A program made the position numbers and the translations under genes. The notes under the pieces are model-generated. The model saw only the letters and a list, made by a program, of their open reading frames with translations, was not told where the DNA came from and did no database searches. From an uncultured Fibrobacteraceae bacterium (lineage in GTDB: Bacteria; Krumholzibacteriota; Krumholzibacteriia; LZORAL124-64-63): a stretch of DNA of 64,000 bases. Where the stretch lies: contig CAYFKR010000014.1 in assembly GCA_964343835.1 (NCBI GenBank), forward strand, positions 32,406 through 96,405, read 5' to 3'. This document shows positions 54,357-64,000 of this stretch, one piece after another. How positions within the stretch are numbered: position 1 is the stretch's first letter; the number at the start of each line of letters is the position of its first letter.

Positions 54357-55005
54357 ATGTTCCTGCGCCGCATCGCCCCGCTGTTCCTGCTGCTGCTGAC
54401 CGCCCTGCCCGCCGCCGCCGACTGGTGGCCGCTGGAGTACGGGTGGACCTGGATCTACTACAGCGACGAGTTCGAGTCCAACCTGGAGCTCGACGTGATG
54501 GAGACGCCGGTGATGGTACGCGGCGTGGCGACCACCGAGCTGCGCTACCGCCGCAGCAACGCCACAGACAGCACGGAGTACAGCCGCTTCGTCACCGAGA
54601 CTCCGGAGGGCGACGTGTACCTGCACGGCCGCCAGGACGTCCAGGATCCTCGACGTCCCCCTGGAGATGGACAAGATCTGGTCCACGCGCTATGCCGAAT
54701 ACGAGGGATTGCTGGAAGGCGGGCCGCTGGTGCAGCGCTGGATCGAGACGTACACGGTCAACGAGGAGTACTTCCACTCCGACTGGACCGGTCCGACCCT
54801 CCACTGCCTCGGCCTGACCCAGGAGATCAGCATCCAGACGGCGGCGGGCGTCGCCGAAACGGGCTCGACCCGCAACGCCAACCTCTTCTACAACGACGGC
54901 GTGGGGCTGGTGATCAGCAATACGTTCCGGATGACGGGGTACAACTGGCAGGTGTCGGCGGAGTCGATGACCTGGTCGGATCTCAAGGTCCGGTTCAGCG
55001 ACTAG
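54357..55005 (+). pseudogene. secreted hypothetical protein, apparent +1 frameshift near 54640..54670 (frame 0 N-terminus with signal peptide, frame +1 C-terminus)
   Basis: The N-terminus MFLRRIAPLFLLLLTALPAAADWWP has GGAG 7 nt upstream. The C-terminal 112 aa are in the +1 frame and end 3 nt from the convergent gene stop. Both frames stay open through the junction, so the exact shift position cannot be determined. Confidence 0.35.
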
Positions 55006-56186
55006 CCCACCACGAACGCATCCGCCTCCACGTCCCCGTTCGCGAACCGCGACAGCGACAGCGACTCCACGATGTCGTCCGGCTTCCCGGAGACGATCGT
55101 CTCGGCCATGCGCGACGCCGCCACGGGCGCCAGCATGAAGCCGTGTCCGCTGAATCCGCAGATGTGCCGGTAGCCTTCGAGACCCTCGACGCCGCCCAGG
55201 ATGGGCCGGTGGTCGGGGGTCACGTCGTACATGCCGGCCCACTGGCGCATCATGCGCAGGGTGCGGGCGGGGGGCCAGTAGCCGATCAGCGCCTTGGCGA
55301 AGCGCACGGCGAAGCGGAGCTGGCTGCGGGTGTCGAAGTCCTCGGGCCTGTCCCAGTGGGGCTCGCCCGGATCGCCGATGCCGCCCACGATCTCGCCGCG
55401 CATGCTCTGGCTGAAGTAGATGCCGTTGCTGATGGAGATCACCATGGGGTCCAGGAACGGCTTGCAGGACTCGCTCACCATGATCTCGTGGCGCTCCTGC
55501 CGGTTGGGCAGGTCCACGCCCACCTTGGCCGCCAGGGTGCGGGCCCAGGGGCCGGCGCAGTTGATGAGCAGGGGGGTGGCGATCTCGCCACGGCTGGTGG
55601 ACACGCCGGTCACCTTGTCGCCGTCGGTGCGCACGTCGTGGACCTCGGTCCGGATGAAGATCTTCACGCCGCGACGCCGGCATGCCCGCGCGTAGCCCCA
55701 CACCACGGAGAACGGATAGGCGGTGCCGTCCTTGGGGCAGAAGGTGGCGCCCTTCACGTTCGAGATGTCCAGCTGCGGCACGATCTTCAGGCAGTCCTCG
55801 GGCTGCAGGAACTCCGTGGGCACGCTGCAGCGGTTCTGCAGGTCCACGGCCTTGCGCAGGCCGTCGAGGTGAGCCTCGTCGTCGGTGACCATCAGGTAGC
55901 CGCCCTGGCGGAAGAAGGTCTGCAGACCCAGTTCCGACGCCAGGTTCTCGTACGCGGCTACGCTCTCCTGGGCCAGGCGGATGTTGGCCTCGGTGGTCCA
56001 CTGCTGGCGGATGCCGCCGCCGCAGCGGCCGGTGGACCCGCTGCCAAGGTACGCCTTCTCCAGCACCACGATGTCGCGCATGCCGCGCTTGCTCAGCTCG
56101 TAGGCCACGGCCAGACCGTTCACGCCGCCGCCCACGATGACCGCGTCGGCCTTGTAGGGCACGGGGCTGTCGGGCAGGGGGATCAT
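55002..56186 (-). CDS. FAD-dependent oxidoreductase, DAO family (HcnC / sarcosine oxidase beta / opine oxidase B-like)
   Basis: VIVGGGVNGLAVAYEL dinucleotide fold, 394 aa, GFSGHGF near the C-terminus. GGAGG RBS. Its start overlaps the upstream stop. Confidence 0.8.
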   Translation of the reverse strand: MIPLPDSPVPYKADAVIVGGGVNGLAVAYELSKRGMRDIVVLEKAYLGSGSTGRCGGGIRQQWTTEANIRLAQESVAAYENLASELGLQTFFRQGGYLMVTDDEAHLDGLRKAVDLQNRCSVPTEFLQPEDCLKIVPQLDISNVKGATFCPKDGTAYPFSVVWGYARACRRRGVKIFIRTEVHDVRTDGDKVTGVSTSRGEIATPLLINCAGPWARTLAAKVGVDLPNRQERHEIMVSESCKPFLDPMVISISNGIYFSQSMRGEIVGGIGDPGEPHWDRPEDFDTRSQLRFAVRFAKALIGYWPPARTLRMMRQWAGMYDVTPDHRPILGGVEGLEGYRHICGFSGHGFMLAPVAASRMAETIVSGKPDDIVESLSLSRFANGDVEADAFVVG

Positions 56187-56496
56187 GCCTCCACCTCCGG
56201 TCCGGCGGTGCGCTCGAGCTCGGCCATCAGGGGCGTGACCTCCAGCGAGGCCAGCTCGCCGAACGTCAGGGGACGGGTGGGCGGACGGATGTTCGTCAGC
56301 GGGATCTCCGCGGGAGCCACGCCGCGCAGGTGCGCCAGCTCCGTGGCCGCCTCGCACAGGCATCCCTTGCCCTGACAGAACCCGGTGCCGACACCGGTGA
56401 AGCGCTTCAGGGATTCCATCTCGGTAAAGCCGTCGGCGTGGGCCTTGCGGAACTCCTCCACGGTCACGTCCTCGCAGCGGCACAGGATGCGCTTGC

Positions 56497-56500
<4 letters not shown>
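56183..56500 (-). CDS. small BFD-like [2Fe-2S]-binding protein (HcnA/OoxA-N-like)
   Basis: 105 aa with CRCE...CQGKGC four-Cys pattern. GTG start 7 nt after GGAGG. Overlaps both neighbours. Confidence 0.65.
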
Positions 56501-57852
<1,352 letters not shown>

Positions 57853-57956
57853 CGTCACCGAGGGTCCGGACACGGGGTGTTCCTTTCGCCGTGGACGCGC
57901 TGGAACGGCAAACATAGACGGGCGGATCGGGGCGGGCAAGGACGGTCGGACGATCG

Positions 57957-58049: not shown

Positions 58050-59423
58050 ATGAGCACCGAATTCCAGCGCATCCGCAACCTGTGCGAAGAGCGCGGCGTC
58101 GAGTTCGTCGACTTCAAGGTCCTGGACCTGGTCGGCCGCCTGCACCACATCACCTTCCCGTTCGAGCGGTTCACGCCGGAGGTCATGGCTGAGGGCATCG
58201 GCTTCGACGGCTCCAGCTACGGGTTCCTCAAGGTCGAGGACAGCGACATGGTGCTGCTGCCCGACTACGGCACCGCCCAGATCGACCCGTTCCGCTCGCG
58301 CCCGACCCTGTCGCTGTTCGCGGACGTGAAGCACGTGGACGTCGAGCGCACGCCCTTCAACCAGGACGGCCGCCGTATCGTGCGCGCCGCCGAGCAGGCC
58401 CTGCGCGACCTCGGGATCGCCGACTCCACCCGCTGGATCCCCGAGTACGAGTTCCACATCTTCGACGAGGCCGAGTACCGCAACGGCGTGACCGAGTCCC
58501 ACTACAAGGTCAAGAGCGACGAGGACTTCTTCCAGAATGCCTACCACGCCTGCAATCCCCACGACAAACACGACGACTTTCGCGACGAGGTCTGCGCCCT
58601 GATGCAGGACCTGGGCATCCCCGTGCGCTACCACCACCACGAGGTGGGCGCCCAGGCCCAGCAGGAGATCGAGGGCTGGTTCGCCGACCTGCCGACCACC
58701 GCCGACCACGCCGTGCTCACCAAGTACCTGCTGTTCAACGCGGCGGAGCGTCACGGCCTGAAGGTCACCTTCATGCCCAAGCCCCTGTACGACAACGCGG
58801 GCAGCGGCTGGCACCTGCACCAGTACCTGGTGGACGCCGACGGCAACAACATCTTCGACGACCCCGACGGCTACGCCGGCCTGAGCCGCACGGCCCTCTA
58901 CTATGTGGGCGGCATCCTCAAGCACAGCCCCGCGCTCTGCGCCCTGACCAACCCGTCCACCAACTCGTACAAGCGGCTGGTGCCGGGCTTCGAGGCGCCC
59001 ACGGCCATCACCTTCGGGCGCAGCAACCGCGGCGCGGCCATCCGCATCCCGAGCTACGTGGCCGACCCGCAGCATCGGCGCATCGAGTACCGCCCACCGG
59101 ACTTCACGTGCAACCCGTACCTGGCCACGTCGGCCATCCTGATGGCGGGCATCGACGGCATCGTCAACGAGATCGATCCCTACGAGATGGGCTACCACCC
59201 CGAGGACGCCCCGTCGCAGGCGCAGAGGGGAGAGGTGGAGTTCCTGCCCCGGTCCCTGGCCGACGCCCTGGACGCCCTGGAGGCCGACCACGCCTTCCTC
59301 ACCCGGAACGACGTGTTCCCCGAGGTGCTGATCCGGCGCTGGCTCGAGATCAAGCACGACGAGATCCAGGCCATCAACCGGCGGCCGCATCCCTACGAGT
59401 TCACGATGTATTTTGACTTGTAG
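58050..59423 (+). CDS. glnA: glutamine synthetase family protein (type I fold)
   Basis: 457 aa. Beta-grasp N-terminus plus catalytic domain with GSGWHLHQ, NPYLA and ammonium/ATP-site-like motifs. GS type I layout. Confidence 0.75.
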   Translation: MSTEFQRIRNLCEERGVEFVDFKVLDLVGRLHHITFPFERFTPEVMAEGIGFDGSSYGFLKVEDSDMVLLPDYGTAQIDPFRSRPTLSLFADVKHVDVERTPFNQDGRRIVRAAEQALRDLGIADSTRWIPEYEFHIFDEAEYRNGVTESHYKVKSDEDFFQNAYHACNPHDKHDDFRDEVCALMQDLGIPVRYHHHEVGAQAQQEIEGWFADLPTTADHAVLTKYLLFNAAERHGLKVTFMPKPLYDNAGSGWHLHQYLVDADGNNIFDDPDGYAGLSRTALYYVGGILKHSPALCALTNPSTNSYKRLVPGFEAPTAITFGRSNRGAAIRIPSYVADPQHRRIEYRPPDFTCNPYLATSAILMAGIDGIVNEIDPYEMGYHPEDAPSQAQRGEVEFLPRSLADALDALEADHAFLTRNDVFPEVLIRRWLEIKHDEIQAINRRPHPYEFTMYFDL

Positions 59424-59495
59424 GTCCCATTTGTGGACAATGGGGGCCGGGCGGCAATCGTGCCGCCCGGCCCTTTTTCTCGCCGGAGGGGCTCC

Positions 59496-59912
59496 ATGAT
59501 CGAATTCCGGGTGCCGACCACCGGACGCACCGACTTCATCGATATCCAATCTCAGGTGCAGCGCGCCGTGTCCGATCTAGGATTGGTGGACGGCGCCGTG
59601 CTCGTGTGGGTCCCCCATACGACCGCCGGCGTGACCGTGAACGAGGGGGCCGATCCCGACGTGGTGCGGGACATGGCCGACGCCCTCGACGCCATCGTGC
59701 CGTGGAACAACGGCTGGCGTCACGCCGAGGGGAACACCGCCGCCCACGTCAAGAGCAGCCTCTACGGCTGCGACCAGATCGTCCACGTCCGCGACGGGCA
59801 GCTCGTGCTGGGCACGTGGCAGACGCTCTGGTTCTGCGAGTTCGACGGTCCGCGGCAACGGCGCGTCCAGGTGACGGCCCTGGCCGCGGGCTGGGAAGGC
59901 GTCCGGGAATGA
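59496..59912 (+). CDS. YjbQ/UPF0047 family protein (secondary thiamine-phosphate synthase-like)
   Basis: VWVPHTTAGVTVNE...DPDV..D....L....P....W.H..EGN.AAH is the YjbQ signature. GGAGGGG RBS. Confidence 0.75.
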   Translation: MIEFRVPTTGRTDFIDIQSQVQRAVSDLGLVDGAVLVWVPHTTAGVTVNEGADPDVVRDMADALDAIVPWNNGWRHAEGNTAAHVKSSLYGCDQIVHVRDGQLVLGTWQTLWFCEFDGPRQRRVQVTALAAGWEGVRE

Positions 59913-60682
59913 AGGAACACATCCACCTTCACAGGGCCTACAAGCGCCTGGGCGCCGCTCCGCGGGCGTCCACCACGGCGTTCCTGCTGCTGGTGGCGAT
60001 CCTCGACGCCATCGTCGTGATCTTCCACCGCACCCTGCTCGACGCCTTCGTGGAGCGCGTGGCCCGCCTGACCGCGTGGGCCGGCGTGGAGACCACCGTC
60101 ACCCGCTGGACCTTCCTGCCCCACTGGGTCACCGACATGCCCGTGCTGGACGCCGCCGCGTCGTTCCCGTCGTATCGGCTCTCGCTGACCACGTTCATCG
60201 TTTCGGTGCTTGTCGTGGTGATCGCGCCGCGGCTGCGGCCCATCCCCAAGGTGGTCCGGGTCTACGCGGTGTTCCTGAGCCTCCTGATGACCTGCTCCGC
60301 GGTGTTCTTCCTGTTCTGGCCCCACCGCTTCCCCTACGACGTGGTGGACTTCTCGCTGCTGTACATGGGCACCCAGCTCGGCATGTGGCTGCTGATGCCG
60401 GTGGTGATCGGCACCGCCCTGACGCCCATCCCCGCGCCGACCCTCGAGAAGTTCGGGGTGATCCTGGCGACGGTGGCCTACGGGGTGCTCTTCGGAGCCG
60501 TGCGCTACGCGGCCTTCCTGTTCCTGCTGCGGGAGCTGACGGTGCTCTCGATGGCGGCCATGTTCTTCGCACTCGGGCCGTTGATCGACTTCGTCTACAT
60601 GGTGGCCATCTACTCGCTGTACGTGAACGTCGTGGCGCTGAGGCTGCGCGACCGGCCGGAGGTCTGGCGATGGTCGTTCTGA
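59909..60682 (+). CDS. hypothetical polytopic membrane protein (about 7 to 8 TM helices)
   Basis: 257 aa, highly hydrophobic. ATGA overlap with yjbQ and a 13-nt overlap with the GT2 gene. No recognised domain. Confidence 0.45.
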   Translation: MKEHIHLHRAYKRLGAAPRASTTAFLLLVAILDAIVVIFHRTLLDAFVERVARLTAWAGVETTVTRWTFLPHWVTDMPVLDAAASFPSYRLSLTTFIVSVLVVVIAPRLRPIPKVVRVYAVFLSLLMTCSAVFFLFWPHRFPYDVVDFSLLYMGTQLGMWLLMPVVIGTALTPIPAPTLEKFGVILATVAYGVLFGAVRYAAFLFLLRELTVLSMAAMFFALGPLIDFVYMVAIYSLYVNVVALRLRDRPEVWRWSF

Positions 60683-61929
60683 TCCTCAAGCTCTACGTGA
60701 TCCTGGTGGTGCTGGTGATGTCGGTGTACGCGATGCGTCACTACTGGCTCACCCACAACCGCCTGCGCGGCGAGCAGCGCCTGTACTACCAGGACATCCT
60801 GGACGACGACCTGCCCCCGATCACCGTGCTGGTGCCGATGCACGACGAGGAGAAGGTGGCGCGGCAGTCCATCGAGGCCATCCTGGCCTGCGACTATCCG
60901 CGGCACCTGCTGCAGGTCATCCCCATTGACGACCACTCCACCGACCGCACGCCCGAGATCCTGGACGAGCTGGCCGCCGCCCACCCCGAGGTGCAGCCCC
61001 TGCACCGGCGCGAGGGTCTGCGCGGCAAGCCCGCCGCCCTGAACGACGCCCTGGAACTGGCCCACGCCAACGTCATCATCAACTTCGACGCGGACTACGT
61101 GCCCAACAAGGGCGCCCTGCGCGACCTCAGCCTGTCGTTCAAGGATCCCGAGGTGGGCGCGGTGATGGGCCGCGTGGTGCCGGTGAACACGCGCGCCAAC
61201 CTGCTGACGCGCCTGCTCGACCTGGAGCGCAGCGGCGGCTACCAGGTGGACCAGCAGGCCCGGCACAACCTCAAGCTCATGCCCCAGTACGGCGGCACCG
61301 TGGGCGCGTACCGCAAGGACCTGGTGCAGGCCCACGGCGGGTTCGACCCGCAGGTGCTTGCCGAGGACACCGACCTCACCTACCGCCTCTACATCGACGG
61401 CTGGAAGATCGTCTACGCCAACCGCGTGGAGTGCTTCGAGGAGGTGCCGGAGACCTGGGCGGTGCGCTCGCGCCAGATCCGTCGTTGGTCCCGTGGCCAC
61501 AACTTCGTGATGATGCGGCACTTCCGGCCGTTGCTGAAGTCGCCGTACCTGAACCGTCGCGAGAAGCTGGACGGCCTGCTGCTTCTGCTCATCTACATGG
61601 TGCCGGTGTTCCTGCTGACCGGCATCATCGACTCGGTGCTGCTGTTCTTCCTGGGCGAGATGCAGATCATCGAGAGCGTGCTCGTGTTCCTGTTCGTCGC
61701 CTCGTACAACTCGTTCGGCAACTTCGCCCCCTTCTACCAGATCGGCTCGGCGTCGCTGCTGGACGGCGTGACCCACCGCATCCGCCTGCTGCCCTTCCTG
61801 ATGTTCTACTTCCTGCTGAACATCTGGACCATCAGCAGCGGCTTCTTCATGGCGCTGCTCGACCGCATCCAGCGGCGCACGGCCACCTGGGACAAGACCC
61901 AGCGGTTCCGGCGCGAGGAGGCGACGTGA
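60670..61929 (+). CDS. family 2 processive beta-glycosyltransferase (cellulose/chitin/hyaluronan/PNAG synthase-like)
   Basis: N-terminal TM, then VLVPMHDEE, IDDHSTD, FDADY and the QIRRWSRG (QxxRW) motif, then 3 to 4 C-terminal TM helices. 419 aa. Confidence 0.8.
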   Translation: MVVLILKLYVILVVLVMSVYAMRHYWLTHNRLRGEQRLYYQDILDDDLPPITVLVPMHDEEKVARQSIEAILACDYPRHLLQVIPIDDHSTDRTPEILDELAAAHPEVQPLHRREGLRGKPAALNDALELAHANVIINFDADYVPNKGALRDLSLSFKDPEVGAVMGRVVPVNTRANLLTRLLDLERSGGYQVDQQARHNLKLMPQYGGTVGAYRKDLVQAHGGFDPQVLAEDTDLTYRLYIDGWKIVYANRVECFEEVPETWAVRSRQIRRWSRGHNFVMMRHFRPLLKSPYLNRREKLDGLLLLLIYMVPVFLLTGIIDSVLLFFLGEMQIIESVLVFLFVASYNSFGNFAPFYQIGSASLLDGVTHRIRLLPFLMFYFLLNIWTISSGFFMALLDRIQRRTATWDKTQRFRREEAT

Positions 61930-63110
61930 TGCGCAAGCGGATCATCATCGCCTCGGTCGTGCTGATCGGGATCATCGGGCTGGTGTCGGGCGCCGTGGTG
62001 GCCCAGGGGCTCGTGGATGCGACGCCTCCCGAGGTCCCCGTGGCCGAGGCGCCCGGATCCGGCGGCTGGCTGGTGACCTTCTTCATCGTGCTGATCGTGC
62101 TGCCGTTCGTACCCGGCCTGCTGGAGGTGGCCCTGCCCTGGGACCGCTATCCGCTCCAGGTGGACCTGCAGTACACCAAGGATCCGCGGTACATGGGCCG
62201 GCGCGCCCGGGCGCTGCTGGCCGGGGCCCTGGAAGGACTCGATCTGGTGCCGGGGCGTCACGAGGTGACCCTCTCCAAGCCCGAGACCCTGGACCTGCAC
62301 GATGCCTTCGACATGCCCGACGGCGAGTGTTCCGAACTGCTGACGGTCGTGCGCGGCAACGCATCGCTGGGCGAGGCCGCCCGGCTGGAGAACGACCTGC
62401 ACGTGGACGGCGACGCCGCTGTCGGACGTCGCGCCGTGGTGCGCTCCCTGGCCTGCGGCGGCCGTGCCGAAGTGGGCCCCGACGCCCGCGTGGTGCGCTG
62501 GCTCGACGCCGAGGGCGAGATCGTGGTGCGTCCGGGCGCGCGCCTGGGCGCCACCGTGTCCACCCCCCGCGAACTCCATCTGGGCGACGGCGTGACGTTC
62601 CGCCGCCTCTGGGGCTCCCCGGTGCTGACCGACGGCGGCGGCGAGACCGACCCCGCCCCGCTGCCGGCCTCCACGTCCGTGCCCCACGACCCCACGGGCG
62701 AGATCAACATCGACGAACACGTGACCCGCCACGACGGCGACCTCGAGCTGGACGACCTGGGCTCCGACCCGGTGCGCCCCCTGGTCGTGCGCGGCGACTT
62801 CACCCTGGGCGGCGGGCTCGTGTTCCGCGCCTCGGTCAAGGTCTACGGCTCGGTGCGGCTGCGCCCCGGCGCCGTGGTCGTGGGCGACGTGTTCGCCGAA
62901 CAGGACGTGGTGCTGGAGGACGGCGCCGTCGTCGAGGGCAACGTGTTCACCCAGGGCCGCGCCGAACTGCGCCGCGGCGCCCGGGTCGGCGCTCCCGAGC
63001 GGCGCACGTCGCTGGTGGCCCACAAGGAACTGCTGCTCGGCCCCGGCGTAAGCCTGTACGGCTATACGCTGACCGACGGACGGGGGGAGGTGCGATGCGA
63101 CGGACCGTGA
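61929..63110 (+). CDS. membrane-anchored protein with bactofilin-like beta-helix repeats
   Basis: Two N-terminal TM helices, then repeated GDAAVGRRAVV / GGGLVFRASVKVYGSVRLRPGAVVVGDVFAEQDVVLEDGAVVEGNVF hexapeptide-like turns. Its start overlaps the GT2 stop. Confidence 0.45.
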   Translation: MRKRIIIASVVLIGIIGLVSGAVVAQGLVDATPPEVPVAEAPGSGGWLVTFFIVLIVLPFVPGLLEVALPWDRYPLQVDLQYTKDPRYMGRRARALLAGALEGLDLVPGRHEVTLSKPETLDLHDAFDMPDGECSELLTVVRGNASLGEAARLENDLHVDGDAAVGRRAVVRSLACGGRAEVGPDARVVRWLDAEGEIVVRPGARLGATVSTPRELHLGDGVTFRRLWGSPVLTDGGGETDPAPLPASTSVPHDPTGEINIDEHVTRHDGDLELDDLGSDPVRPLVVRGDFTLGGGLVFRASVKVYGSVRLRPGAVVVGDVFAEQDVVLEDGAVVEGNVFTQGRAELRRGARVGAPERRTSLVAHKELLLGPGVSLYGYTLTDGRGEVRCDGP

Positions 63111-64000
63111 TGATCGTGCTGGTCGCAGCCGCCTGCCTCGCGGTGGCCTGGGCCGGCTGGAAGACCGTGCAGCGGGCCGACCTCACGGTCGACCGCACCG
63201 ACCTGCGCGTGCTGGTGGCCCATGCGCCCGACCTGCTCGGCGAGAACGGCCACGTGCTGGACGCGTGGGTGAGCGTGCTGGAGGAGGAGGGCATGGCGGT
63301 GGAGACCGTCGGCATGTTCGATCTCCAGGACGCCGACCCGAAGCTGGTCGCGGGCTCGGCCCCGGCCCTGATCCTGCCCGACGCCGTCTGCTCCAGCCTG
63401 TACTCGTCGTTCGGACCCTGGCTCGACGCCTACCTGCAGGCCGGCGGCTCGGTCCTGGCCGCCTACGACGCCGGCGTGAAGAGCCGCAAGGGCTCCTACC
63501 TGCCCCGCTCCTGGCTGGCCGGCCTGACCGGCGTGCTGCCGGTGGATTACGCCACCTTCGGCGACGACGCCTACGGCCTCGGCGCGCTCCGCTTCTCCGA
63601 TGCGGAATCCGCCGAACTCCTGGGTGCCCCCCCTGGCAAGCTCGACGACGACCTCTGCCTCACCGGCTACTCCTACGGCCGCCTCGCCTACCCCACCGCC
63701 CGCAGCCGCGTGACCGCCCCCGAGGGCGTACGCGTGCTGGCCTGGGTCGAGCCCGATGAGGGCGGCCGCATCCCGGCAATCACGGCCCGCGCTCACGGCG
63801 CCGGCCTGGCCTGCTACGTGTCGCTGCCCCTGGGCCACCTCAAGGCCCACGCCGACGACCTGCCCCTGCGCATGGTCGTGCGATGGTGGCTCCTCAAGGA
63901 ACTGGGCCTGCCCCACCTCATGCCCACGGCAGGCGGCGTGGGCGGCGTGGTCTTCAACTGGCACATCGACGCCAACACCGACTGGACCGTCCTGGACCGC
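63095..64000 (+). CDS. hypothetical secreted/periplasmic protein, 3'-partial (runs off the window end)
   Basis: ATG at 63095 after GGGGGGAGG, signal-anchor MRRTVMIVLVAAACLAVAWA. Open to the window end with no stop. Overlaps the upstream gene by 16 nt. GVVFNWHIDANTDW faintly resembles the SVDVEDW motif of some polysaccharide deacetylases. Confidence 0.4.
   Translation, partial: MRRTVMIVLVAAACLAVAWAGWKTVQRADLTVDRTDLRVLVAHAPDLLGENGHVLDAWVSVLEEEGMAVETVGMFDLQDADPKLVAGSAPALILPDAVCSSLYSSFGPWLDAYLQAGGSVLAAYDAGVKSRKGSYLPRSWLAGLTGVLPVDYATFGDDAYGLGALRFSDAESAELLGAPPGKLDDDLCLTGYSYGRLAYPTARSRVTAPEGVRVLAWVEPDEGGRIPAITARAHGAGLACYVSLPLGHLKAHADDLPLRMVVRWWLLKELGLPHLMPTAGGVGGVVFNWHIDANTDWTVLDR

Follow-up and report, generated by a model that had tools for sequence, protein, structure and literature searches.

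To our knowledge, few synthase-dependent exopolysaccharide systems have been described, namely, those for cellulose, alginate, poly-N-acetylglucosamine (PNAG), Pel, and, recently, Nfr. These systems have shaped the understanding of the biofilm matrix, phage receptors, and anti-biofilm enzymes. A CE4 deacetylase is a familiar partner, as in PgaB, IcaB, and PelA; a cyclic di-GMP (c-di-GMP) receptor and a tetratricopeptide repeat (TPR) scaffold are frequent, though not universal, components. Among deacetylated N-acetylhexosamine (HexNAc) exopolysaccharides, which include PNAG, Pel, GAG, and the N-acetylmannosamine (ManNAc) polymer of Listeria, partial deacetylation is a requirement (reviewed in PMC6307706). 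In NfrB/NfrA/WecB, a family-2 glycosyltransferase (GT2) is combined with an outer membrane exporter in a WecB-dependent system, and the proposed product is a ManNAc-containing glycan (PMC8669472, PMC8669469). Here, we analyze a GT2-centered gene cluster at the end of a 64,000-nucleotide stretch of DNA (the window) from an uncultured Fibrobacteraceae bacterium (GTDB lineage Krumholzibacteriota, Krumholzibacteriia, LZORAL124-64-63; assembly GCA_964343835.1, contig CAYFKR010000014.1, positions 32,406 to 96,405 of the forward strand). Sequence comparisons and structure models make it likely that the window ends within an envelope-spanning synthase-dependent exopolysaccharide system, similar in logic to Pga and Nfr.

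At the end of the window, five plus-strand open reading frames (ORFs) overlap start to stop, as an earlier note on this DNA had described; all of its ORF coordinates and start/stop junctions were re-derived exactly. The G+C content of the region is ∼67 to 74%, which is why it contains many long spurious ORFs. The five genes are real nonetheless and are as follows.

59496-59912, plus strand: yjbQ (UPF0047; PF01894, 135 bits; TIGR00149, 143 bits)
59909-60682, plus strand: Mem, a 257-aa polytopic inner membrane protein; its ATG lies in an ATGA shared with the yjbQ stop
60670-61929, plus strand: GT2, a 419-aa processive-type family-2 glycosyltransferase; 13-nt overlap with Mem
61929-63110, plus strand: BH, a 393-aa transmembrane (TM)-anchored beta-helix protein; the A of its ATG is also that of the GT2 TGA
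63095-64000, plus strand: P5, the first 302 of 618 aa; 16-nt overlap with BH, continuing past the window

An alternative BH start, the GTG at 61926, would give a 4-nt overlap with GT2. The Mem stop and GT2 start overlap by 13 or 19 nt in 8/8 gene-called loci from different lineages. The view of the locus as a tightly coupled operon around a processive-type GT2 was upheld when these junctions were checked, and stoichiometric co-expression of a membrane complex, also proposed in the earlier note, would be in keeping with it. The unit is not the five genes proposed there, in that yjbQ is a passenger and two further genes follow past position 64000.

The sequence beyond the window was obtained from a European Nucleotide Archive metagenome contig (L001), identical to window positions 59504-64000 with zero mismatches over 4,497 nt, and from relatives. 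On this contig, full-length P5 has 618 aa, and its gene would end at the window equivalent of 64951. A lipoprotein gene, Lipo (MRPASRWTFLLASLLLATSLTGC), begins 38 nt before the P5 end and encodes a lipoprotein signal, MRPASRWTFLLASLLLATSLTG, with cleavage before C. In relatives, the full order is glnA, yjbQ, Mem, GT2, BH, P5, Lipo (∼295 aa), and a YaiO protein (∼275 aa), so the operon runs on through Lipo and then YaiO. The YaiO domain (PF19413; cut-off, 23.9 bits) scores 36.1 bits in the close relative L002 and 38.8 bits in L005, and the YaiO proteins of orthologous loci have signal-peptide-like N termini. We infer an outer membrane barrel in the genome of the window from close relatives such as L002, whose proteins are 55 to 86% identical. 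All Lipo proteins have a signal peptide, with a lipobox in this lineage only. No Pfam or NCBIfam family matches Lipo, and the possibility that it is YbcH was ruled out by a lack of HMM (hidden Markov model) similarity.

To follow the cluster across genomes, we used nine loci found by scanning genomes with a BH profile, several retrieved through exact look-ups of Mem and P5 homologues, and a further 80 from a metagenome scan with a P5 profile (407 positive stretches), roughly 100 in all. Component profile HMMs were run on six-frame ORFs of each locus, and loci were merged at 90% identity of P5, giving 59 clusters whose GC content ranges from 0.29 to 0.72. Components were counted only in loci with enough flanking sequence, as follows.

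Mem: present in 40/41 loci
GT2: present in 41/41 loci
BH: present in 41/41 loci
Lipo: present in 35/43 loci
YaiO: present in 32/43 loci
Epimerase_2 (WecB) gene within 6 kb: 19/28 loci
glnA within 6 kb: 5/28 loci

Mem, GT2, and BH occur in constant order on one strand in all loci. The order Mem-GT2-BH-P5, the conservation of which the earlier note had proposed to check, is kept in 40/41 testable nonredundant loci across the whole GC range of 0.29 to 0.72, a recurrence far above chance. Carriers belong to Candidatus Krumholzibacteria, Candidatus Alcyoniella, Nitrospirota/Nitrospiraceae, Selenomonadales, Candidatus Ratteibacteria, and Acidiferrobacter; they include the isolate genomes of Sporomusa aerivorans and S. 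malonica as well as human-gut metagenome contigs. The complete six-gene order Mem-GT2-BH-P5-Lipo-YaiO is found in Krumholzibacteria-like metagenome-assembled genomes (MAGs), Candidatus Alcyoniella, Sporomusa aerivorans (CP156926.1), a Nitrospiraceae MAG, and others. The P5 family comprises at least 157 clusters at 90% identity, and P5 relatives occur on the 407 metagenome stretches.

Two variants deviate from the full set. A remote low-GC locus, L018, retains Mem (32% identity), GT2 (57%), and BH (30%), its fourth gene (279 aa) corresponds to the P5 N-terminal domain only, and Lipo and YaiO are missing. This gene content defines a minimal core of Mem, GT2, BH, and the P5 N-domain. In a human-gut variant (L070, L074, L080, L091, and seven similar loci, e.g., L080:6911-14428; GC content, 0.41), the order is Mem-GT2-BH-P5-Lipo, and neither YaiO nor WecB was found within the flanks. 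A 599-aa ORF without a Pfam match overlaps the Lipo end there, and a DUF4127 gene lies upstream; these bacteria may use a different exporter, or the host may be monoderm. Some loci carry additional genes. In the remote low-GC setting (L018:2256-3650 and L019:751-4449), CotH, DUF4956, and VTC-domain genes lie upstream of the Mem-GT2-BH core, and two paralogous ∼750-aa proteins are encoded downstream of it on the opposite strand. Tandem copies of P5 or of the P5-Lipo pair stand behind BH in L083, L088, and L089 (e.g., L089:7271-12755). At L024:13534-15132 lies a gene for a 532-aa membrane protein containing a spermidine/spermine-synthase domain; it overlaps the yaiO end by 13 nt, which may reflect a polyamine link or a mere neighbor.

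The GT2 protein carries the motifs DD (86-87), DAD (140-142), ED (232-233), and QIRRW (269-273), an N-terminal TM segment, and C-terminal TM helices. It matches four Pfam GT2 families (PF13641, 105 bits) and has full-length matches of the PgaC/NodC/BcsA type. The full-length match to TIGR03937 (PgaC_IcaA) reaches 138 bits and fails the equivalog threshold of 422, and NF008411 (NfrB) scores 17 bits against a cut-off of 1170. With an HMM of the GT2 family, E. coli PgaC scored 116 bits (GT domain only), YaiP 61, and NfrB 15. These features indicate a processive, translocating synthase of a distant PgaC/IcaA-like kind.

Mem was modeled with AlphaFold2 (AF2) from 43 sequences (pLDDT, 85.5; pTM, 0.80). 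The model has helices at residues 19-38, 40-57, 89-108, 114-136, 145-171, 178-209, 212-222, and 224-248 and a beta-hairpin at 62-82. Together with a hydropathy scan, it suggests about six membrane-spanning helices, a surface helix, and the hairpin, rather than the 7 to 8 TM helices first assigned. Mem has no family match in Pfam or NCBIfam and no solved structural relative; searches of PDB sequences with Mem, P5, and Lipo, singly and as profiles, returned nothing useful. Identity with PgaD was ruled out, as no HMM similarity was found. Across the loci compared, Mem appears as the conserved upstream partner of the synthase.

P5, which the earlier note had called an unknown exported protein, is predicted to be exported but is held by a TM anchor, and it is no longer unknown. 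The AF2 model, built from a 60-sequence alignment (pLDDT, 94.9; pTM, 0.93), shows an N-terminal TM anchor, a GATase1/ThuA-like domain, a CE4-fold deacetylase domain, and a C-terminal beta-sandwich. The CE4 domain is predicted to form a (beta/alpha)-barrel of the NodB fold, and the top structural neighbors of P5 include peptidoglycan deacetylases and ArnD. Six residues within this domain, H290, D292, H356, H361, R436, and H499, are invariant in 60 homologues of 34 to 62% identity; the motifs are NWHxD (H290 and D292) in place of TFDD and SHGGWxHN (H356 and H361). The invariant residues fit a metal-dependent deacetylase. P5 scores 15.2 bits with PF01522 (threshold, 23.1), and several homologues carry a precomputed PF01522 match. 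Its single N-terminal TM helix is preceded by Arg residues, and the enzyme is therefore expected to be periplasmic. On the strength of the model, P5 is a CE4-fold polysaccharide deacetylase with a GATase1-like domain.

The sugar supply is suggested by the linked epimerases. In 4/4 cases tested, these are of the nonhydrolyzing WecB type (TIGR00236, 359 to 494 bits against 210) and not NeuC. The wecB gene overlaps the Mem start in L024, lies between Lipo and YaiO in L025, and is in the operon in many metagenome loci; in L002, it is encoded on the strand opposite to yaiO, 3.0 kb downstream.

BH consists of a signal-peptide-like segment, one conserved TM helix (LPFxPGxxE), and a beta-helix of ∼320 aa, the C-terminal part of which is bactofilin-like. 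The BH of the window scores 19.2 bits with Bactofilin (PF04519; gathering threshold [GA], 27.9) and 16.4 bits with Hexapep (27), whereas relatives exceed the Bactofilin GA: the L024 orthologue at 33.5 bits and P0237 at 31.7 bits. Among 100 diverse members, Bactofilin matched at an E value of ≤0.01 in 88 (best, 8e-9), Hexapep in 36, and an N-terminal SPOR domain in 6. An exhaustive HMMER search found 1,713 representatives (clusters at 50% identity) at an E value of ≤1e-3, 1,031 at ≤1e-10, and 368 at ≤1e-30; the median length is 351 aa among the 149 listed. BH is thus a large unnamed family, and the window member is, by these scores, bactofilin-like without being a clear Bactofilin. A search of PDB sequences with BH gave generic beta-helix noise only.

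Bactofilins and BH are alike in that the C-terminal ∼90 residues of BH members match the bactofilin beta-helix. They differ in size, the bactofilin core having ∼100 residues (Pfam model, 98) and the BH beta-helix region being ∼3 times longer, and in that BH is integral to the membrane via its conserved TM helix and operon-linked to a polysaccharide synthase. Three features suggest that the beta-helix is probably cytoplasmic. Basic residues follow the TM helix; SPOR domains, which are periplasmic and bind septal peptidoglycan, stand N-terminal to the conserved TM helix in ∼6% of BH relatives (L018:5827-7380, P0228, P0194, and P0197); and an in-frame BH-YaiO fusion of 633 aa occurs in two independent assemblies (P0308/P0322). 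The joint of this fusion reads as YaiO's own signal peptide, RSLMMLAMIICAAGGIARA, with cleavage before DQ, which would function only behind a cytoplasmic BH domain. The SPOR domains also hint that the systems bearing them are placed at the division site. Fusions among the 149 listed family representatives comprise N-terminal SPOR extensions, one LRR, and one YaiO; none joins BH to GT2, Mem, or P5.

How does this cluster compare with known systems? Like PgaABCD/IcaADBC, it combines a membrane GT2 and a small or polytopic membrane partner with an extracytoplasmic CE4 de-N-acetylase and an outer membrane barrel, and P5 has the predicted CE4 fold and a conserved Asp/His/His set. Unlike in Pga, HMM comparisons gave no sequence relationship of Mem, P5, Lipo, and YaiO to PgaD, PgaB, and PgaA, and specifically none between P5 and PgaB; neither a GH153 match of the PgaB type nor a TPR domain is present, BH and the GATase1-like domain on the deacetylase are extra, and the WecB linkage suggests a different sugar. 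The absence of BcsB, PgaD, and Alg44, reported in the earlier note, was borne out. With the Nfr (N4 glycan receptor) system of E. coli, the cluster shares a GT2 and an outer membrane exporter; Nfr depends on WecB, and here a wecB gene lies in or near the operon in 19/28 loci. On the other hand, the C-terminal c-di-GMP-binding domain of NfrB is missing here, YaiO and Lipo show no relationship to NfrA and YbcH (the YaiO HMM had no significant match to NfrA), and Nfr has no deacetylase, Mem, or BH.

Pel is built around a GT4 synthase (PelF) with PelD/E/G and exports through PelB/PelC, and its PelA carries a hydrolase domain as well. A PelF-type GT4, PelD/E/G, PelB/PelC, and the PelA hydrolase domain are all absent from our cluster. 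The Gram-positive systems Listeria Pss and Bacillus subtilis YdaJKLMN include a BcsB-like subunit as well as a c-di-GMP receptor and lack an outer membrane component; it is by these general descriptions, and not by sequence, that we set them apart. They resemble the cluster in being GT2 synthase dependent and deacetylase containing, with a beta-1,4-ManNAc-based polymer (PMC6307706).

The E. coli K-12 cluster yaiS-yaiP-yaiX-yaiO (L008; NC_000913.3, 380069-384616), in which yaiX is disrupted by IS2, likewise unites a deacetylase, a membrane GT2, a hexapeptide beta-helix protein, and a YaiO barrel, and our GT2 and YaiO HMMs match YaiP (61 bits) and YaiO (23 bits). Unlike P5, YaiS is a "putative deacetylase" of 185 aa (RefSeq), which we take to be a small cytoplasmic LmbE-type enzyme and not a CE4 protein. 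YaiX, annotated as a putative acyltransferase and presumably a soluble hexapeptide protein, does not contain the TM motif of BH, and neither Mem nor Lipo has a homologue in that cluster. A relationship, and a distant one, was detected for GT2 and YaiO only, and orthology of the two clusters was dismissed. No characterization of yaiS-P-X-O was found in the searchable literature, so that it cannot yet account for our cluster.

The analysis establishes which genes are present, in what order, and how they are coupled, as well as the motifs of GT2, the P5 folds (CE4 and GATase1-like), a YaiO domain, and linkage to WecB; what the polymer is, that a physical complex forms, and what Mem, BH, and Lipo do, we infer. 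UDP-HexNAc would be supplied to the synthase, probably as UDP-ManNAc from the linked nonhydrolyzing WecB. The PgaC-like GT2, in complex with the ∼six-TM Mem, would polymerize the chain and translocate it across the inner membrane, with Mem, the BH TM helix, and the P5 anchor plus N-domain as obligatory membrane partners. BH, held by its TM helix, may scaffold or position the synthase through a bactofilin-like beta-helix on the cytoplasmic face, and the periplasmic SPOR domain of some BH relatives hints at septal targeting. That BH acts as a polymerizing scaffold is conceivable, though short of probable. In the periplasm, the putatively metal-dependent CE4 domain of TM-anchored P5 would partly de-N-acetylate the nascent chain, Lipo, a putative all-alpha periplasmic protein, may trim or chaperone the polymer, and the YaiO barrel would let it exit through the outer membrane. 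The product is probably a partly de-N-acetylated HexNAc polymer, possibly of ManNAc; the chances that ManNAc is the main sugar are about even.

This Pga/Nfr-like parts list of precursor enzyme, GT2, partners, deacetylase, and barrel argues for a synthase-dependent exopolysaccharide pathway. Several points weigh against that interpretation. The evidence for every cluster member is computational, the CE4 assignment comes from a predicted structure, and PF01522 is below threshold for P5. Searches of Pfam and NCBIfam with the six proteins and their orthologues revealed no c-di-GMP receptor (PilZ, I-site, GGDEF, or MshEN) and no TPR scaffold. WecB is absent within 6 kb in 9/28 loci, and a wecB gene on the opposite strand a few genes off, as in this lineage, may reflect general synteny. 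The human-gut variant without YaiO implies that export is not always via a YaiO barrel. Lipo, YaiO, and wecB all lie outside the window, the genome itself showing just the first 126 nt of Lipo, on L001, which ends before YaiO, and the Lipo fold is a hint only, an E value of 0.095 to an (alpha/alpha)6-barrel cellobiose 2-epimerase in a profile search of the PDB.

If the cluster were instead a highly diverged pga locus for PNAG (poly-beta-1,6-N-acetylglucosamine), GT2 would be PgaC, Mem a PgaD analogue, P5 PgaB, and Lipo plus YaiO PgaA. PgaC_IcaA is indeed the best NCBIfam match of GT2, at full length, and the 116 bits of the GT2 family HMM with E. coli PgaC, the CE4 fold of P5, and the barrel at the operon end all fit; the H-x4-H spacing of P5 would also match that of PgaB. 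However, the remaining components show no sequence relationship to PgaD, PgaB, and PgaA, and the WecB linkage suggests another sugar. We regard a diverged pga locus as improbable. Still less expected, and in our judgment very improbable, is that the product is a cell envelope glycoconjugate (a glycolipid, periplasmic glycan, or peptidoglycan-associated polymer), with YaiO and the CE4 enzyme serving envelope remodeling. Weak GT2 matches to Glyco_transf_21 and to hopanoid/glycolipid GT2 models speak for it, as do the resemblance of P5 to peptidoglycan deacetylases and to ArnD, which acts on a lipid-linked sugar, the SPOR domains of some BH proteins, which point to the septal cell wall, and the gut variant without YaiO. 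But the QxxRW motif, C-terminal TM helices, and full-length PgaC/NodC/cellulose-synthase-type matches are those of a processive, translocating enzyme, an outer membrane barrel is co-encoded in 32/43 loci, and the parts list mirrors known synthase-dependent secretion systems.

Two further alternatives concern individual genes. BH might be a left-handed beta-helix acyl- or acetyltransferase that has the sugar or the polymer as its substrate, a role that YaiX may play in E. coli. Hexapep matches in 36/100 family members (best E value, 1.9e-10), weak PDB matches to LpxA, LpxD, and VioB, the name "predicted acyltransferase" given to some members by IMG, and the yaiS-P-X-O cluster, where a hexapeptide protein accompanies a GT2 and a YaiO barrel, would all agree with an enzyme. 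Against this, 8 close members contain no invariant or near-invariant His, and 100 diverse members show no conserved His, Ser, or Cys; conservation falls on Gly, Trp, Phe, Leu, and residues that are acidic or juxtamembrane. The absence of conserved His/Ser/Cys disfavors an acyltransferase role; moreover, Bactofilin is the commonest match (88/100), with some members above its gathering threshold, and the hexapeptide scores of the window BH are all below threshold. An enzymatic BH thus seems unlikely. The other alternative counts glnA and yjbQ as functional members, for example, to provide glutamine for amino sugar synthesis, in a unit that runs from glnA through yjbQ, Mem, and GT2 onward. In every Krumholzibacteria-like locus, glnA adjoins the cluster, and yjbQ stop and Mem start overlap in the window and in L002. 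However, a terminator hairpin stands behind glnA, glnA is within 6 kb in 5/28 nonredundant loci, and yjbQ is found only in the closest relatives and is absent from all loci outside the lineage. In a Krumholzibacteria MAG (L020), an unrelated 175-aa ORF replaces yjbQ and the other six genes are kept. The wider neighborhood (ECH, epimerase/DUF1731, and alaS) is syntenic within the lineage, which indicates vertical inheritance rather than functional linkage. We consider membership of glnA and yjbQ extremely improbable; judging from their distribution, they are neighbors by descent in one lineage. Judged by this distribution and by the glnA terminator, the conserved set comprises Mem-GT2-BH-P5(-Lipo-YaiO).

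The searchable full-text literature, which leaves most subscription papers outside reach, yielded no account of this cluster, so that an earlier description is possible. Family searches with the proteins flanking GT2, suggested in the earlier note, placed yjbQ clearly in a family, gave no match for Mem and P5, and left BH below threshold. No previously described synteny came to light, and the gene order proved conserved; neither outcome that the note had named as refuting its claim was obtained. Its claim of an undescribed architecture stands in part: Mem, BH, and the periplasmic Lipo, and only these, are without precedent, but the overall logic is that of a known synthase-dependent pathway. 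These three of the six proteins belong to no curated Pfam or NCBIfam family, and Mem would represent a new type of synthase co-subunit for structural work. The cluster is not rare, and it is open to direct testing, as it occurs in human-gut assemblies and in Sporomusa, a genus that has been cultured and has a complete genome (S. aerivorans, CP156926.1, six genes at 2893786-2900357). A ManNAc product would extend a chemistry that is known for Listeria Pss and has been proposed for the N4 receptor of E. coli, and should BH polymerize, the siting of polysaccharide secretion would be tied to a cytoskeletal element. We tentatively raise a broader idea, which we do not expect to hold in full: an unrecognized, phylum-spanning synthase-dependent class, carried by Krumholzibacteriota, Nitrospirota, Negativicutes, some Proteobacteria, and human-gut bacteria, in which GT2 would need Mem and a membrane-tethered bactofilin-like polymer that fixes the site at which a partly de-N-acetylated ManNAc-type polymer is secreted, SPOR variants being septal. 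Such a class, if real, would directly couple a bactofilin-type cytoskeletal element to polysaccharide secretion, the first case of its kind.

At the upstream boundary, glnA (TIGR00653, 458 bits) ends at 59423, 72 nt before yjbQ, matching the ∼70 nt first reported, and is followed by a hairpin.

59442-59481, plus strand: intrinsic-terminator-like hairpin after glnA, with a 15-bp GC-rich stem, a 4-nt loop, and a UUUUUCU tail

RNA folding gave −51 kcal/mol for this hairpin (z = −3.9; 0/200 shuffles were equally stable), and an equivalent hairpin and U tract follow glnA in L002. The hairpin is the upstream boundary of the unit, and glnA is a separate unit. A sigma-70-like match, TTGACT-17-GACAAT (59413-59441), abuts the hairpin, and its predicted start would lie inside it. 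The GTG at 59433 was dismissed as a yjbQ start, which would put the terminator hairpin within the gene. No Rfam family, riboswitch or other, was found in this region of the window or in six diverse loci; weak PtaRNA1 matches on both strands were traced to the palindrome of the glnA terminator. The yjbQ gene is probably co-transcribed with the cluster here, as a lineage-specific passenger outside the conserved system; the yjbQ-Mem gap is 28 to 75 nt in L010 and L005. In L005 (7418-7494), the glnA-yjbQ spacer contains an inverted repeat that is perfect over 35 bp (−79 kcal/mol; z = −12) and lacks a U tract; it may be a REP-like element or an unusual terminator. Upstream of glnA, positions 55002-57939 of the window (minus strand) hold a three-gene FAD/[2Fe-2S] oxidase cluster. 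Its subunits are, according to the gene table of the syntenic L002, DAO-type, small BFD-like 2Fe-2S, and Fer2_4 plus Pyr_redox_2 proteins, resembling HcnABC/opine/sarcosine-oxidase-like enzymes.

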